Origin: Acidimicrobiia bacterium
Lineage (GTDB): Bacteria > Actinomycetota > Acidimicrobiia > Spongiisociales > Spongiisociaceae
Assembly: GCA_022827785.1 (NCBI GenBank)
Contig: JAJEIM010000031.1
Location: 32,549 to 96,548 of the forward strand
Reading direction: 5' to 3'
DNA: 64,000 nucleotides
The number at the start of each line of letters is the position of its first letter. Positions within the stretch are counted from its first letter, which is position 1. A program made the position numbers and the translations under genes. The notes below the pieces were generated by a model. It ran no database searches. It was not told the DNA's origin and saw only the letters and a program-made list of their open reading frames with translations. Shown here piece after piece: positions 4,346-56,077 of this stretch.

Positions 4346-5152
4346 GTGCGCCTTGCATCTGCCGTATCCCATAGGTCGACCGAGTCGAGCCGGTGCGCCG
4401 GTGGCGGGGCCGGGCGCGCACGGCTGATGGAAGCCCCTCGATCCCCTAGGCGCGTGGCCATCGCGGTAGTGGTCATGCTCGTGCTGCTCGCCGGAGCGAT
4501 CGGGGTGTCCCGGCTGGTATCTGGCGACCGTGAAACGGTTGCGACCAGTGGTCCTACCGATACGTCTCCTCCAAGCGTCGACCCGGCCTCGGTCGGCACC
4601 ACCACGGCAGCAGGGGCGACCACGACCGCTCCGCCCGTCACTGAGGCCTCCGCGACTTCGACCGCGCCGGCCACCACCGCGCCGATCGATCCACCCCCCG
4701 TGCTCAAGGAGACGCATCCGCCTCTCAAGGAGATCGACGGCTGGCTCCAGGCGGACGTCACCTCGCTGGAGGAGTTGCGGGGCAAGGTGGTGATCGTGGA
4801 GTTCTGGACCTTCGGCTGTTACAACTGCAAGAACCGCCTCCCCTACACGCAGGACATCTACGCCGGCTACCGGGATCAGGGCCTCGAGATCGTCGGCATC
4901 CATTCCCCGGAGTTCGCCTACGAGAAGGAGGTGGACGCCATAGTCGAGGCTCTGGACCGGCTGGGGGTCACCTGGCCCGTCGTGCTGGACACCGATCGGC
5001 GCACCTTCCGGGAGTGGCAGGGGTCACCGGCCTACTGGCCCCGCACCTACGTGCTGGACCATCTGGGCCGGGTGCGCTTCGATCACATAGGCGAGGGGGC
5101 CTACAAGGCGCTGGAGGACACCGTGGTGGCGCTGCTGGCCGAAGTCCCGTGA
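4346..5152 (+). CDS. Membrane-anchored TlpA/ResA-like thiol-disulfide oxidoreductase (thioredoxin fold, CxxC = CYNC)
   Basis: A TM segment and a Pro/Thr/Ala-rich linker precede VVIVEFWTFGCYNCKNRLPY...VVLDTDRRTF...TYVLDHLGRV. The start is GTG at 4346 or ATG at 4427. It is translationally coupled to ccdA downstream. Confidence 0.8.
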   Translation: MRLASAVSHRSTESSRCAGGGAGRARLMEAPRSPRRVAIAVVVMLVLLAGAIGVSRLVSGDRETVATSGPTDTSPPSVDPASVGTTTAAGATTTAPPVTEASATSTAPATTAPIDPPPVLKETHPPLKEIDGWLQADVTSLEELRGKVVIVEFWTFGCYNCKNRLPYTQDIYAGYRDQGLEIVGIHSPEFAYEKEVDAIVEALDRLGVTWPVVLDTDRRTFREWQGSPAYWPRTYVLDHLGRVRFDHIGEGAYKALEDTVVALLAEVP

Positions 5153-8669: not shown

Positions 8670-9652
8670 TGGTCGAACTCTCCGATGCGAGCCGACCGGG
8701 TTACCACCGGATAGTCGAAGTAGGTTTCGGTCACCAGGTCGTGGAGCCGGCGGCCGGCGATCCTGAACTCGGCGAACAGGCCTTCGGCGTCGGATGTCCT
8801 GGGCCAGACGAAGCGAAGCAGGTCCGACATGTGGTCCACCTGGGACCGGGCCTGGGAGGTGGCGGTCCGGTCGGGACCGTCCCCGATCGCCGACAACTCC
8901 CGATGCAGTCCGAGAACCGACATGCTCAGCGAGTCGGGGAGGTGCGGGTCGGATACGAGCAGGTCCAGCACCCGGCCGGCGTCGATCGCCAGGCCGTCGC
9001 CCTGCTGGTACGCCTCGAAGGCATGAAACAGGCGGAGCAGGCTGGTCCAGTAGGCGTCCGCGGGCACAGCGAACAGCCGCACCGCGGCGATCTGGGCGCC
9101 CAGCACCGAGGCCACCAACTCGGCTCGTTCCAGGAGGCTACCCATGCGGATGAAGTGCCAGCCCTGATCCCGATACATGGTGGAGGAGCTGACGCCCCGG
9201 AACGTATCGATGTCCGCCTCGACGTTCGCGTAGAACTGCTCCGGCGTCGACGCCCAGATGTCCTGGATCTCCATGTCGCGGAGGCGGAGATACGGCCGGT
9301 TGAGGGATGCCCACATCTCCGCGGAGATGCGGTGGCGCACCTGCCGGGCGTTCTCCCGAGCCAGGGAGAAACAGTTCCGGATGGAGTCGGGCATCGTGGC
9401 CTCAAAGGTGAGATCATCGGCGAGGGTGAAAGAGTCGGCCAGCGTGTAGTACTCGTCTCCTTCCGTGTCTAGGGGCCCCGTATGCGGTCGCCTTCCCAGC
9501 GTGCCGTAGATCCGGTGCCATCCGAAGTAGATGTCACGAACCGGGCTGTCCACCAGCGACTCCGTCTGCTGGCGCATCAGCCGGGCGAGATGGCTGGCCC
9601 TCTCGAGGTACCGGCCGATCCAGTAGAGGCTCTCGGCGCTACGTGCCAGCAT
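8666..9652 (-). CDS. Alpha-E domain protein (DUF403)
   Basis: MLARSAESLYWIGRYLERASHLARLMRQQ... is the typical alpha-E start. It overlaps the downstream transglutaminase gene by 4 bp. Confidence 0.8.
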   Translation of the reverse strand: MLARSAESLYWIGRYLERASHLARLMRQQTESLVDSPVRDIYFGWHRIYGTLGRRPHTGPLDTEGDEYYTLADSFTLADDLTFEATMPDSIRNCFSLARENARQVRHRISAEMWASLNRPYLRLRDMEIQDIWASTPEQFYANVEADIDTFRGVSSSTMYRDQGWHFIRMGSLLERAELVASVLGAQIAAVRLFAVPADAYWTSLLRLFHAFEAYQQGDGLAIDAGRVLDLLVSDPHLPDSLSMSVLGLHRELSAIGDGPDRTATSQARSQVDHMSDLLRFVWPRTSDAEGLFAEFRIAGRRLHDLVTETYFDYPVVTRSARIGEFDQ

Positions 9653-9736: not shown

Positions 9737-11173
9737 CTACCCCTCCTCCAGTACCCAGAAGTCCTTGGCGCCTCCCCCCTGGCTGGAGTTAACGACCAGG
9801 CTCCCTCGGCGCATGGCGATCCGGCAGAACGCCCCCGGCACGATGCGGGTCTCGCCCCCCGACAGAATGAAGGGCCGCAGGTCCACGTGGCGGGGCTCGA
9901 GGCGGCCGTCGATCAGGCAGGGCGCCCGGGACAGGGCCAGGGTGGGTTGGGCAACGAAGTCGGCCGGATCCTGGCGCAGGAGGGATGCGAACCGGTTCCG
10001 TTCCTCGGCGCTCGCATGGGGACCGACCAGCATCCCGTAGCCGCCGGACTCGCCCACTCGCTTGACCACGAGATGCTCCAGGTTGTCCAGGGTGTACTCC
10101 AGATCCTCGGGGCGGCGGCAGAGGTAAGTTTCCACGTTAGGGATGAGCGGTTCCTCCGCCAGGTAGTAGCGGATCATGTCGGGGACGAAGGCGTAGACGC
10201 TCTTGTCGTCGGCTACGCCCGTGCCCGGGGCGTTGACCACCGATACGTTGCTCAGCCGGGCGGCATGCAACAGGCCGGGGGCGCCGAGCAGAGAGTCCGG
10301 ACGGAACACGAGGGGGTCGAGGAAGTCGTCGTCGATCCGGCGGTAGATGACGTCCACCCGCCGCAGACCCGCCGTGGTGCGCATGTACACGTAACCGTCC
10401 TCGACCACCAGGTCCCGGCCCTCCACCAGTTCGGCGCCGATCTGGCGCGCCAGGAACATGTGCTCGTAGAAGGCCGAGTTGTATACCCCGGGGGTGAGGA
10501 GGACGACCGTCGGGTCGTCGCAACCCTCGGGCGCCATCTCGTGGAGGGTCCGGCGGAGGACCAGCCCGTAGTCCTCCACGGCTCCCACCCGGGAACGCCG
10601 GTAGAGGAGGCGCATGGCCGACTTGGTGGCCTTGCGGATGGCGATCATGTAGGAGACGCCTGAGGGAACTCGCAGGTTGTCCTCGAGAACCCGGAAGCCG
10701 TCCACGGTCCGGACCAGGTCGGTGCCGCAGATGGCCACCCAGATCCCCCTGGGGGCCTCGAATCCCTGCATCTCGATGCGATACTGGGGGCAGCCGAAGA
10801 CCATGTCCGGCGGGATTACCCCATCGGAGACGATCCGGGCCGAGTCGTATATGTCCCGTAGAAAGGCGTTGAGAGCGGCCAGGCGCTGCTCGAGTCCCCT
10901 CGCCAGGCCTCGCCATTCCGCACCCGCCATCACCCGCGGGATGCAGTCGATCGGGATGATGCGCTCGTCGGCCTCGTCGTCGCCGTACACGGTGAAGGTG
11001 ATGCCTTCGTGGGTGAAAGACCGGGTGACCCATTCGCCGATGGCGTTCATGTCGTCGTCGGAAGCCTCCAGGAGGGTCTCGTAGAGGTCCCGACCGTGGG
11101 AACGGGGGGTTCCGTCGCTCCGGAACAACTCGTCGTAGACGCCCGCGTCGAGGTCGTAGCCGTCGAACTTCAT
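9737..11173 (-). CDS. Circularly permuted type-2 ATP-grasp protein (DUF404/DUF407)
   Basis: Starting at the internal Met (MKFDGYDLDAGVYDELF...), at 11173 by codon arithmetic, the protein matches the circularly permuted ATP-grasp family that always partners with alpha-E and transglutaminase. The ORF track's extended N-terminus (to 11362) is low-complexity. Confidence 0.75.
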   Translation of the reverse strand: MKFDGYDLDAGVYDELFRSDGTPRSHGRDLYETLLEASDDDMNAIGEWVTRSFTHEGITFTVYGDDEADERIIPIDCIPRVMAGAEWRGLARGLEQRLAALNAFLRDIYDSARIVSDGVIPPDMVFGCPQYRIEMQGFEAPRGIWVAICGTDLVRTVDGFRVLEDNLRVPSGVSYMIAIRKATKSAMRLLYRRSRVGAVEDYGLVLRRTLHEMAPEGCDDPTVVLLTPGVYNSAFYEHMFLARQIGAELVEGRDLVVEDGYVYMRTTAGLRRVDVIYRRIDDDFLDPLVFRPDSLLGAPGLLHAARLSNVSVVNAPGTGVADDKSVYAFVPDMIRYYLAEEPLIPNVETYLCRRPEDLEYTLDNLEHLVVKRVGESGGYGMLVGPHASAEERNRFASLLRQDPADFVAQPTLALSRAPCLIDGRLEPRHVDLRPFILSGGETRIVPGAFCRIAMRRGSLVVNSSQGGGAKDFWVLEEG

Positions 11174-53227: not shown

Positions 53228-53980
53228 ATGGTGGGAAGCCTGCGCCTCTATTCCGACCTGGCCTACCTGTGGCCGCTGGTAAGCCCGCCGGAGGACTACG
53301 CGGAGGAGGCCGTTCACTGGAGGGAAGCCATCCGGGCCCGGCTGGGTGAGGGCCTCTATCGCATCCTCGAGCTCGGCGTGGGCGGTGGCCACAACCTGTC
53401 GCACCTCACCTCTGACTTCGAGGCCACCGGTGTTGACCTGTCTCCGGAGATGCTGGAGCATTCCCGGCGGTTGAACCCGGACGTGGAGCACCATCTGGGT
53501 GATATGCGGACGGTGCGCCTGGGGAAGGTGTTCGACGCGGTGCTCATCCACGATGCGGTCTCCTACATGCAGACCGAGGACGACCTGCGAGCGGCCTTCG
53601 CCACCGCCCGGGCCCACCTGCGAGCCGGCGGTCTGCTCCTGGTGGCGCCGGACCTGGTGGCGGAGTCGTTCGACGAGGGCCGGGTCTTGCGCTGGGATAT
53701 CCCACCACCCTCCCGGCCCGGCGACCCGGAGGTGGAGGTCGAAGAGCGGCTGACCGACCCCGATCCGACCGACACCACCATCGAGTCCTGGATCACCTAC
53801 ACGATCACCGAGGGAGGCGTTCGCCGGACGGAGACCGACCTCCATGTGACCGGCCTCTTCCCCCTGGCAACCTGGGTGTCGCTGATGGAGGAGGCCGGCT
53901 TCGAGACCCGGATACTCCCTCTCCCGGGTGACGGGGACGGATGCGGTGAGCACCTATTCTCCGGGATCCTCCGGGGGTGA
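53228..53980 (+). CDS. Class I SAM-dependent methyltransferase
   Basis: ILELGVGGGHNLSHL is motif I (GxGxG), and VFDAVLIHDAVSYM is motif II. Confidence 0.75.
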   Translation: MVGSLRLYSDLAYLWPLVSPPEDYAEEAVHWREAIRARLGEGLYRILELGVGGGHNLSHLTSDFEATGVDLSPEMLEHSRRLNPDVEHHLGDMRTVRLGKVFDAVLIHDAVSYMQTEDDLRAAFATARAHLRAGGLLLVAPDLVAESFDEGRVLRWDIPPPSRPGDPEVEVEERLTDPDPTDTTIESWITYTITEGGVRRTETDLHVTGLFPLATWVSLMEEAGFETRILPLPGDGDGCGEHLFSGILRG

Positions 53981-54054
53981 GTGCTTACATCCAGGTGGTC
54001 GATGCGGCTGCATCGCACTGCGATTAGCGACTCGCACGAAGGTCTCCGGAACCG

Positions 54055-54774
54055 TCACGCGGGGAGGGGCCGTCCTTCTCCCTGTCCGTCCAGGCCGGCG
54101 ATCCACGCATCGAACAGCCCGTAGGAACCCTCGTTCAACTCCGCCCGGGCGTCCTCCATGCCTGCAACGAACTCCTCAGGGGTGCTCCCCGCCCTCTCCA
54201 CCATCTCGCGGGCCCCGTGGTTGGCCCACCGGTTGGCCGTGGAGTTGTGCGTCTCGGGATGGAATTGGATGGCCAGCGCCGATCCCAGTGCGAAGGCTTG
54301 GGGGAACCGGTCGGAGCGTGCCAGCAGCACGCTGCCCGGGGGCAGATCGAACGTGTCCTGATGCATCTCGAACACCCTTCGTCCGGCCACCTTCGACACC
54401 ACCGGATGGCGGTGTCCGGCCTCGGTGAGCTCGACCGGTACGGCGCCGACCTCGGGACGGTCGGCCTTATAGACCCGGCCCCCCAGTGCTGCGGCGAGCA
54501 GCTGGGATCCGAGGCAGATCCCCAGCACGGGAACGTCCCGTTCCACCAGTTCCCGCGCCAGTTCCATCTCGTCGGCGAGATAGGGATAAGCGTCGGTCTC
54601 GTAGGCGCCCATGCGGCCGCCCGTCATCACCAGGATCCCCACCTCGTCGGCCGGCGGGATCGGTTCTCCGTCGATGGCCGTGATCTCGTCCCACTCCATC
54701 CCGGAGTGCTCGAGGCGCTCGACGAGCCTGTCCAAGGGCTCATGGGAGTGCTTGATCACCAACATCCTGCCCAT
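54055..54774 (-). CDS. Class I glutamine amidotransferase-like protein
   Basis: VPVLGICLGSQLLAAALGG has the nucleophile-elbow Cys, and ...FHPE... the catalytic His-Glu. The start is the internal Met at 54774. Confidence 0.75.
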   Translation of the reverse strand: MGRMLVIKHSHEPLDRLVERLEHSGMEWDEITAIDGEPIPPADEVGILVMTGGRMGAYETDAYPYLADEMELARELVERDVPVLGICLGSQLLAAALGGRVYKADRPEVGAVPVELTEAGHRHPVVSKVAGRRVFEMHQDTFDLPPGSVLLARSDRFPQAFALGSALAIQFHPETHNSTANRWANHGAREMVERAGSTPEEFVAGMEDARAELNEGSYGLFDAWIAGLDGQGEGRPLPA

Positions 54775-54889: not shown

Positions 54890-56077
54890 TTGGTCCCATG
54901 CCCGCCGATCATTGGGGCCGATCAGAACTATCATGTGGCGGGTCCCGACCGGAGGGCACTCTTGACAGTATCCGAGCGTTCAGCGGCCGCCCGGTGGCGC
55001 CGCGTCGCATGGGCGGGGTTGGTCACCGTCGCTCTGCTGGCGGCGGGGACCGTTCCGGGATCGGCCACCACCGGCGCGGACGGAGGGTTCTCCGACGTGG
55101 GCGAGGGCGGCACGCATACGCCCGCCATCGAGGCCCTCTCAGCCATGGGTGTGTTCTCGGGCACCGGATGTGGGGACGGCCTCTTCTGTCCCCGCGACCC
55201 GGTGGAGCGGTCGGTGATGGCCGTCTGGCTGATCCGGGTGCTCGGCCGTGAGGTCGACGCCACCGGAACATCCCGGTTCGCCGACGTCGACGCCGACCTG
55301 TGGTGGTCACCCTACGCGGAGGAACTCGCCGACCGGGAGATCACTACGGGATGCGGTACCGAACCACTCCGCTACTGCCCGGAAAAGACCGTCAACCGGG
55401 GGCAGATGGCCACCTTCCTGGTCCGCGCCTTCGATCTCGAACCCGCCGCCGCGGCCGGGTTCATCGATGTTGCCGAGGGCGGAACGCACAGCGCCAGCAT
55501 CGACGCCCTGTACGCGGCCGGCATCACCACCGGATGCGGTACCGATCCGCTCCGCTACTGCCCGCTCAAGGCCGTGAACCGGGGCCAGATGGCCACCTTC
55601 CTGCACCGGGCATTACACATGCAGGCAGAGGAGACCGGGTCCGCGCCTGTCGAGATAAGCGACGACGTCCCGGATGCCGACCTGACCGACGTGGCCACCG
55701 GCGACACCGTGAACCTCCGGTCGGTCTTCACCGGCGACAAGGCGGTCATGTTCTGGTTCTGGGCCGAGTGGTGACCGACTTGCCAGGGGCATGCCCCCGA
55801 GGTCGAGCAGTTTGCTCGAAAAAACGCCGGAAAGGTCACAGTCGTCGGCATCAACCCGCGAACATGGAACAATCTGACCGATGCCAGGAGCTTTGTGAGC
55901 AGGTACGGGTTAACTTTCACCAACCTCTGGGACAGCTCCGATACCGTGCGTAGGCACTATGGCAGCCCCTATACGTCTAGGGCGCTGCTGGTCGACAAGC
56001 AGGGCAACCGGGTGGAGCAGGCTCCGAGCCTCTTCTCCGCCGCCAGGTTCCAGGGGCTGGTCGACAACCTCGACTAG
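54890..56077 (+). CDS. Candidate selenoprotein: a cell-envelope protein with three SLH-like repeats fused to a TlpA/ResA-like thioredoxin-fold domain. An in-frame TGA (55772-55774) sits at the first Cys of the CxxC motif. The alternative reading is a pseudogene truncated at 55774
   Basis: The track ORF 54890..55774 ends ...KAVMFWFWAEW-TGA. The same frame continues without interruption as PTCQGHAPEVEQFARKNAGKVTVVGIN...YGLTFTNLWD...ALLVDKQGNRV... to a TAG at 56075-77; the track ORF 55895..56077 is in the same frame. Together this forms a textbook TlpA fold (FWAxW-C/U-xx-C) with TGA at the nucleophilic Cys position. Three upstream repeats read F[SAI]DV...TGCG...[LR][FY]CP...V.R..MA..L.R. Confidence 0.5.
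55777..55804 (+). promoter_or_regulatory. Candidate bacterial SECIS-like hairpin immediately 3' of the in-frame UGA
   Basis: GACUUGCCAGGGG-CAUG-CCCCCGAGGUC forms a 4 bp GC apical stem (GGGG/CCCC) with a 4-nt loop containing G, plus a lower stem GACUU/GAGGUC. The apical loop lies about 16 nt downstream of the UGA. Confidence 0.35.

Follow-up and report, generated by a model that had tools for sequence, protein, structure and literature searches.

Among described systems, the UxxC thiol-disulfide isomerase-like/TlpA-like family (cd02966/Thioredoxin_8), first obtained from the Sargasso Sea metagenome, is the closest kind of predicted selenoprotein to the gene analyzed here, and the "Prx-like thiol:disulfide oxidoreductase" (PF00578, UxxC) is a related known kind; U denotes selenocysteine (Sec). 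The gene is carried by a 64,000-nucleotide (nt) stretch of DNA from an Acidimicrobiia bacterium (contig JAJEIM010000031.1), referred to in its entirety as the window, in which an in-frame TGA at 55772 to 55774 stands at the first Cys position of the CxxC motif in a TlpA-like protein fused to S-layer homology (SLH)-like repeats. It is very probably a genuine selenoprotein gene, a cell-wall-anchored variant in which this UGA is recoded to Sec. Features shared with the cd02966 family are the TlpA/ResA thioredoxin fold, Sec as the first residue of UxxC, a predicted extracytoplasmic location, widespread Cys homologs, and a candidate selenocysteine insertion sequence (SECIS) within the coding sequence. 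The published cd02966 entries, which were compared by description, have a single domain, are short, and stem from marine reads of unassigned origin or from other phyla, whereas the family in the window adds three SLH-like repeats, RCC1 together with SLH repeats, or a lipoprotein linker and includes tandem paralogs in Acidimicrobiia.

The closest solved structures were those of Mycobacterium tuberculosis MPT53/DsbE (1LU4; 4.6e-14) and DsbF (3IOS; 3.5e-13), which are secreted actinobacterial TlpA-like proteins. The window stop aligned with the first Cys of the CxxC motif in these structures, the active site LWFWAPW-C-PTCQGEAP of DsbF corresponding to MFWFWAEW-U-PTCQGHAP in the window, which agrees with the sequence-only reading that the stop falls exactly on the nucleophilic Cys (W-U-P-T-C). 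DsbE and DsbF differ from the window protein in having Cys instead of Sec, in lacking SLH repeats, and in belonging to another class of Actinomycetota. The M. tuberculosis DsbE and DsbF proteins have been reported as oxidants rather than reductants. A further relative in fold is the ResA-like WAxxUGC selenoprotein family NF041054 of NCBIfam, which is ResA/TlpA-like and has an active-site Sec after W-A-x-x; its motif is U-G-C (UxC), in contrast to U-P-T-C (UxxC) in the window, and membership of the window protein in this family was rejected because of the different motif and a score of 20.2 bits against a cutoff of 300. The best NCBIfam match was ResA, with 40 bits against a cutoff of 170, and no equivalog model reached its cutoff.

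The kind of protein is therefore not new, because UxxC thioredoxin-fold selenoproteins are well catalogued, and both this kind and the use of Sec in Acidimicrobiia are known already. The suggestion that such an enzyme would be unusual was accordingly overstated on two counts: as a kind, because UxxC TlpA (cd02966) and other secreted thioredoxin-fold selenoproteins are catalogued, and in an actinobacterium, because Ilumatobacter, "Candidatus Microthrix," and Actinomarina are recorded with Sec machinery. The new elements are the predicted SLH anchoring, the expansion within the lineage, and a uniform misannotation. No description of the SLH-anchored architecture, the tandem-paralog expansion, or the two-hairpin signal was found in the literature, including a 2026 review that makes no mention of the S-layer; literature searches under the genus names Spongiisocius and Poriferisodalis returned nothing, and no curated model for the family was found among NCBIfam. 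The proposal that Sec replaces the nucleophilic Cys in an SLH-fused TlpA-like protein gained support from the conservation of the TGA, purifying selection, a covarying hairpin, Sec/Cys pairs, and a second selenoprotein family. The features of the locus, all on the forward strand, are as follows.

54962 to 56077, forward strand: predicted complete selenoprotein coding sequence, with a TTG start, 371 codons including Sec residue 271, and a TAG stop.
54962 to 55072, forward strand: predicted N-terminal export signal, MTVSERSAAARWRRVAWAGLVTVALLAAGTVPGSATT, a charged n-region followed by a hydrophobic core; recognized by inspection only, with approximate limits.
55088 to 55615, forward strand: three SLH-like repeats (residues 43 to 95, 105 to 159, and 166 to 218; Pfam SLH), with a Cys pair in each.
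55658 to 56074, forward strand: TlpA/ResA/DsbE-like thioredoxin-fold domain (residues 233 to 371; Pfam Redoxin and AhpC-TSA), with a predicted W-U-P-T-C active site.
55772 to 55774, forward strand: UGA very probably read as Sec, residue 271, at the site of the N-terminal nucleophilic Cys of CxxC; TGA in 94 of 94 sequences.
55779 to 55801, forward strand: hairpin 1, a stem-loop rich in G+C that follows the UGA immediately, with the core GGGG-CAUG-CCCC; its register varies among homologs.
55781 to 55783, forward strand: resolving Cys of UxxC, codon TGC; Cys in 94 of 94 sequences.
55803 to 55819, forward strand: hairpin 2, the candidate SelB-binding SECIS, with the core UCGAGCA-GUU-UGCUCGA, encoded by (V)EQFAR; covariation and a fit to the bacterial SECIS (bSECIS) model.
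55895 to 56077, forward strand: spurious 60-residue open reading frame (ORF), the post-TGA part of the selenoprotein gene, called in NCBI, ENA, and Logan records.

The TGA was the sole interruption of the forward-strand frame from 54962 to 56077. In the frame open from 54890, the peptide before the TGA ended in ...KAVMFWFWAEW; the peptide after it began PTCQGHAPEVEQFARKN and comprised exactly 100 sense codons, running PTCQGHAPEVEQFARKNAGKVTVVGINP...LVDNLD, before a TAG at 56075 to 56077, as the sequence-only reading had described. The TTG at 54890, taken there as the start, is only the one farthest upstream in the open frame; gene callers and orthologs begin at the TTG at 54962 (P0001, 270 residues, ending before the TGA). 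The domains were searched for in a conceptual protein in which Cys replaced the stop. Residues 256 to 373 matched Pfam Redoxin (2e-14) and AhpC-TSA (4.5e-14), both above their cutoffs and aligned across the stop, and the N-terminal part matched Pfam SLH (5.8e-9; 36.2 bits, cutoff 20.8), with no single stretch passing alone; the architecture of three SLH-like repeats followed by a TlpA-like domain was thus confirmed. A cis-Pro loop, GSPY, was seen in the thioredoxin domain by eye only. TGA served as an ordinary stop in 25 of the 38 confident window genes, which indicates a position-specific recoding and not a reassigned genetic code.

In-frame TGA codons at this site were found throughout the family. 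About 100 of the best 120 protein clusters (55 to 100% identity; ENA, JGI, NCBI, and Logan) ended one residue before the first Cys, with various residues before the stop (...WFWAEW, AHW, ADW, APW, SPF, SPY, and SPG). A genome scan with the linker and thioredoxin part yielded 78 loci, all from Acidimicrobiia, namely, "Ca. Spongiisociaceae," "Ca. Aldehydirespiratoraceae," Acidimicrobiales, and "Ca. Microthrix," and representing about 65 species as counted by record names. Across these 78 loci and 94 distinct sequences, the family stop was always TGA and never TAA or TAG, and it was followed by 97 to 113 in-frame codons, in every case continuing the TlpA-like domain; such consistency is not plausibly due to chance. 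The resolving Cys three codons past the TGA was present in all 94 sequences, and its codon varied synonymously (TGC in 73 and TGT in 21). Among 13 orthologs, third-position changes prevailed, and the median dN/dS was 0.275 for codons 17 to 100 after the TGA, compared with 0.248 for the 45 codons before it. Judged from these sequence comparisons, the part after the TGA is translated and under purifying selection equal to that upstream.

These data bear directly on the explanation that the TGA arose by a recent nonsense mutation, leaving a pseudogene, or from an error in sequencing or assembly. TGA and TGC differ by one base only, and the window comes from a metagenome-assembled genome (MAG), as such an origin would allow. 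However, the TGA occurs in about 100 genes that are 50 to 100% identical and belong to two orders of Acidimicrobiia, selection is alike on both sides of the codon, and RNA structure past the TGA is under selection, as described below. The TGA and its flanks were also identical in four independent assemblies, namely, the NCBI MAG GCA_022821195.1 (contig JAJEEB010000042.1), one ENA assembly, and two Logan assemblies, and an assembly error is therefore excluded. The alternative of a very recent TGC-to-TGA mutation, which the sequence-only reading had kept in view, was rejected, and an accidental origin of either sort is almost certainly wrong.

Genuine termination at the TGA was a second explanation; the product would be a 270-residue SLH protein, and the downstream part would be a separate small gene or would be expressed from an internal start. 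The databases split the gene in this way, into an approximately 270-residue "SLH domain protein" and an orphan ORF of 60 to 86 residues; orphan fragments of 71 to 86 residues were the sole database matches to the thioredoxin domain, and searches of protein databases turned up no full-length Sec entry for the family. The public annotations all give a protein of about 270 residues and an ORF of 60 to 78 residues, and, since release factor 2 competes with the insertion of Sec, a share of terminated product is to be expected even from a recoded gene. Termination would nevertheless cut the thioredoxin fold between strand 1 and the active-site helix, and protein-level conservation extends over the 22 codons that separate the TGA from the called internal starts (invariant Cys, xxC...P...EQFAR). 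Moreover, in about 100 genes the frame was never shifted and the stop was never TAA or TAG, and the full-length Cys form P0006, described below, is a single polypeptide. Termination as the normal fate of the message is highly improbable.

Many genomes carried two or three copies in tandem, with three within 2.5 kb at locus L093. In the tandem arrays (L093:6844-10432, and also L090, L095 to L102, L110, L113, and others), the N-terminal parts of the paralogs differed in their low-complexity linker or SLH types, and each paralog had its own TGA and hairpins. Chromosome OZ253564.1 contained at least four copies of the family (L093 plus L106).

RNA structure downstream of the TGA was analyzed in the 94 distinct sequences, aligned with the TGA as anchor. 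RNAalifold returned one consensus helix, at columns 32 to 48 (UCGAGC-AGUUC-GCUCGA), encoding the conserved E-Q-F-A-R and corresponding to hairpin 2. Its apical residues G39, U40, and U41 were invariant. Pair 33-47 was C-G in 79 sequences, U-A in 14, and U-G in 1 and was never broken, and pair 35-45 was A-U in 84, G-C in 8, and G-U in 1. Overall, 97.5% of cells in the helix were paired, compared with 15 to 46% when the 3' partners were slid by 1 to 3 columns. Double-change cells numbered 21, against 2.8 ± 1.5 in shuffled alignments, and none of 500 shuffles reached 21. On a neighbor-joining tree built without the hairpin residues, the compensating pairs required at least 5 to 6 and at least 2 to 4 changes, so they do not represent single inherited events.

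Codon choice within hairpin 2 was likewise constrained. Its Ala codon was GCT in 86 of 94 sequences (91%), compared with 6.6% of Ala codons in the window genes, and the eight GCC cases all paired with GGG; its Arg codon was CGA in 54 of 94 (57%), compared with 6.7%. These rare codons are used because the stem forces them. Against a null model of synonymous-codon resampling, the mean z score of hairpin 2 was -3.0. Tested by dinucleotide shuffling, the fold of 55765 to 55840 as a single sequence did not reach significance (z = -1.3), so that the recoding-structure signal is visible only through comparative and synonymous-codon tests.

The published bSECIS model (PMC13188914) specifies a loop of 3 to 9 nt, a stem of 4 to 16 bp, a distance from UGA to loop of 16 to 37 nt, and a minimum free energy (MFE) of ≤-7.5 kcal/mol, with a G within the first two loop positions that is usually followed by G or U. 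All four criteria were satisfied by hairpin 2 in 82 of 94 genes, in answer to the suggestion that a SECIS be sought after the TGA; the window copy, which folds at -9.2 kcal/mol with its GUU loop at 35 nt from the UGA, is one of these. Hairpin 2 resembles the Escherichia coli fdhF-type and consensus bSECIS in its location within the coding sequence, its stem-loop form with a small apical loop of G then U, its upper stem of 6 to 7 bp, and its MFE of ≤-7.5 kcal/mol; it is unlike them in that its loop lies 34 to 35 nt past the UGA and a second conserved hairpin occupies the gap. The hairpin motif occurred 120 times in the 1.9 Mb of flanking loci, and 114 of these 120 occurrences lay exactly 32 nt past an in-frame TGA; two more belonged to the TGC Cys form.

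Hairpin 1, in the gap, was present in 94 of 94 sequences and had at least 5 bp in 85 of them. With 59 distinct 5' arms and a shifting register, it is captured by no single consensus; its mean z score was -1.7 against the synonymous-codon null. The loop of hairpin 1 was only 13 to 16 nt from the UGA, and it was rejected as the SECIS, with the bSECIS model satisfied in just 5 of 94 sequences. Because hairpin 1 fails this model and hairpin 2 passes it, hairpin 2 was taken as the SelB-binding element, and hairpin 1 is probably an accessory element, either a spacer or a pause site.

Homolog searches showed that relatives have either TGA (94 sequences) or Cys (P0006 and L115) at the site, which answered the question of whether close homologs carry a Cys codon there. 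P0006 is a full-length Cys form of 346 residues (...WFWSPYCPTC...) found in two assemblies (L165:6001-7041 and L166:3739-4779); its gene has TGC instead of TGA with both hairpins intact, and it looks like a recent Sec-to-Cys conversion that precedes decay of the SECIS. L115, with TGT at 10118, EELAQ where others have EQFAR, and hairpin 2 lost, is an older Sec-to-Cys conversion. Cys also occupies the position equivalent to the UGA in M. tuberculosis DsbE and DsbF. In the ordinary CYNC TlpA gene of the window (4346 to 5152), no RNA structure was found at the equivalent place (-2.7 kcal/mol).

An unbiased scan for conserved in-frame TGA codons identified a second selenoprotein family in five related genomes, an AhpD-like peroxidase-related enzyme with a C-H-Y-U motif that matched TIGR01926 with 144.7 bits against a cutoff of 81.8. 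The genes are located as follows.

L080:8567-9184 (TGA at 8813), with counterparts at L086:5680, L087:5820, L089:5708, and L092:4704: AhpD-like CxxU gene, TIGR01926.

The AhpD-like gene lay 1.2 to 4.5 kb upstream of the SLH-TlpA ortholog, and the complete "Ca. Spongiisocius" chromosome OZ244917.1 contained both the AhpD-like gene and the syntenic SLH-TlpA ortholog. Its SECIS, CCGGCGC-GGUCU-GCGCCGG, is fdhF-like, with the loop 18 nt after the UGA, and the apical pattern GC-RGUYY-GC was common to this SECIS and hairpin 2. One NCBI record has an AhpD-like gene call of 205 residues that continues through its TGA, and in Acidimicrobiales most database entries of the AhpD-like family are truncations of about 100 residues. 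The AhpD-like gene was absent from the window, where the syntenic gap at 53980 to 54055 is only 74 bp, and the in-frame TGA scan found no other selenoprotein genes in the window; the remaining in-frame TGA clusters were discarded as antisense-frame artifacts of high G+C content.

Sec machinery has been documented in the same class. Peng et al. (2016) recorded SelD, SelA, and SelB in the Acidimicrobiia "Ca. Microthrix parvicella" (7 selenoproteins), Ilumatobacter coccineus (15 selenoproteins), and Ilumatobacter nonamiensis (10 selenoproteins), and selA, selB, selC, and selD are reported from all 84 complete genomes of Actinomarina. A family member with a compensated hairpin 2 (L160) was found in a "Ca. 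Microthrix" MAG.

Several observations weigh against Sec insertion at this site or against the function assigned to the product. Searches by tblastn with E. coli SelA, SelB, and SelD and by ARAGORN, covering the window and the 1.9 Mb of flanking loci, found no selA, selB, selD, or tRNA-Sec gene; a SelB-like match near family member L106 proved by inspection to be a TypA/BipA-type GTPase. The loop of hairpin 2, at 34 to 35 nt, is at the far end of the accepted 16 to 37 nt from the UGA, compared with the 18 nt in the AhpD-like gene of the same clade. Rfam gave nothing at gathering thresholds over the window and noise only at E values of up to 10 on 55700 to 55900; according to the literature, bacterial SECIS elements are poorly covered in Rfam. 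A comparison of neighbors revealed no conserved CcdA/DsbD, ResB, Msr, or VKOR partner beside family members, and an AlphaFold2 model of the Cys form P0006 had a mean pLDDT of 49.3.

Some of these observations would also suit a selenium-independent read-through, in which a near-cognate tRNA (Cys or Trp) or a suppressor decodes the UGA while the hairpins slow the ribosome, giving Cys or Trp and not Sec. In addition to the Sec genes not seen in the searched sequence and the unusual distance of hairpin 2, hairpin 1 is placed where a roadblock would act, and C follows the UGA in 70 of 94 genes. A UGA-C context terminates poorly. On the other side, the G-U-U at the apex of hairpin 2 is invariant and conforms to the bSECIS pattern of the SelB type, and hairpin 2 has GC-RGUYY-GC in common with the canonical SECIS of the AhpD-like gene, which belongs to a known selenoprotein family and occurs in the same genomes. 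Trp at the recoded site, that of the catalytic Cys, would leave the enzyme inactive, and for Cys a TGC codon would be simpler, yet TGC replaces TGA only rarely. Given also the SelA, SelB, and SelD documented in Acidimicrobiia, read-through of this sort is very unlikely, and recoding to Sec remains the preferred reading.

In the proposed mechanism, the UGA at 55772 to 55774 would be recoded to Sec in translation, with SelB carrying Sec-tRNA(Sec) bound to the apical G-U-U of hairpin 2 and with hairpin 1 filling the gap between the UGA and hairpin 2, probably as a spacer or ribosome pause site. The 371-residue product would be exported and held on the cell wall by its three SLH-like repeats, where the selenenylsulfide/selenol-thiol couple of U-P-T-C in the TlpA/DsbE-like domain would exchange disulfides with extracytoplasmic substrates; Sec would act there as a more reactive nucleophile than Cys. 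SelB binding to hairpin 2, the part played by hairpin 1, export, wall anchoring, and the redox direction and substrates are inferred.

The N-terminal part offers candidate substrates. The SLH-like repeats carry (T/N)R(A/G)Q instead of TRAE, and each has a conserved Cys pair in the motif G-C...(F/Y)-C-P (C70/C76, C131/C139, and C192/C200); among 51 homologs, C76, C131, C139, C192, and C200 were invariant and C70 was nearly invariant. Canonical SLH domains have no such Cys pair. This pattern suggests one disulfide per repeat, and the Cys-pair repeats might be substrates of the fused oxidoreductase. A wider proposal combines a bipartite recoding signal with an SLH-anchored selenoenzyme that would form or repair the SLH Cys-pair disulfides of the many wall-anchored proteins of sponge symbionts; we hold this combination to be doubtful. 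In such a bipartite signal, hairpin 1 may hold up the ribosome at the UGA; alternatively, it could loop out about 20 nt and thereby bring the E-Q-F-A-R hairpin, 32 nt away, to working distance. A bipartite signal, if real, would be an architecture that the consensus model of the bacterial SECIS does not include.

Other family members had a lipoprotein-type signal (LAAAACGS) and a low-complexity linker instead of SLH repeats, or added RCC1 repeats; the common theme of the family is a UxxC TlpA-like domain predicted to be tethered outside the membrane. The gene at L103:7418-10465 encodes about 1,015 residues if read from its most upstream start and contains a UxxC domain in addition to SLH-like repeats and numerous RCC1-like ones, and the RCC1-SLH proteins P0106, P0108, P0112, and P0118 (500 to 640 residues) likewise end at the Sec position. 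The motif FCPx[DEN]P... matched more than 500 related stretches in metagenomes. A metagenome scan with SLH-repeat motifs was set aside, as 76 of its 79 loci contained unrelated SLH proteins and only L001 was useful.

The neighbors of the selenoprotein gene in the window were genes for a class I glutamine amidotransferase, a short-chain dehydrogenase/reductase, an RNase H, and a methyltransferase, and no ccm/ccs (resBC or ccdA) cluster was present around it, so that the cytochrome c maturation context of ResA/CcmG was not found. Lipoprotein-type members from "Ca. Aldehydirespiratoraceae" and Acidimicrobiales lay 1 to 5 kb from an apparent pstS, pstC, pstA, pstB, and phoU operon in 14 to 15 loci, as judged by eye (for example, L127:1357-2409, L110:13963-14925, and L119:14942-15844), an adjacency that probably reflects lineage synteny. 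A 122-residue antisense ORF (window positions 55555 to 55923, reverse strand) overlaps the Sec site; its conservation in nine loci is explained entirely by that of the opposite, coding strand, a frequent artifact at high G+C content. The other TlpA-like gene of the window, at 4346 to 5152, was seen to have the normal C-Y-N-C site previously noted; it is flanked by genes for an HpcH/HpaI aldolase and ArgJ, not by cytochrome c biogenesis genes.

More than 100 public protein clusters appear to be misannotated alike, as a truncated "S-layer homology domain-containing protein" and an orphan ORF of 60 to 80 residues. With a model of the family, Acidimicrobiia genomes from sponges, seawater, and wastewater would be correctly annotated in this respect and their selenoprotein counts would rise, and the approximately 100 natural two-hairpin variants provide a series for testing the maximal distance between UGA and SECIS in bacteria. 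Uncultured sponge-symbiont Acidimicrobiia appear to spend selenium on several cell-envelope thiol oxidoreductases per genome, an investment suggesting that redox chemistry outside the cell, for example, the formation of disulfides or the repair of oxidative damage at the wall, is important to their lifestyle.

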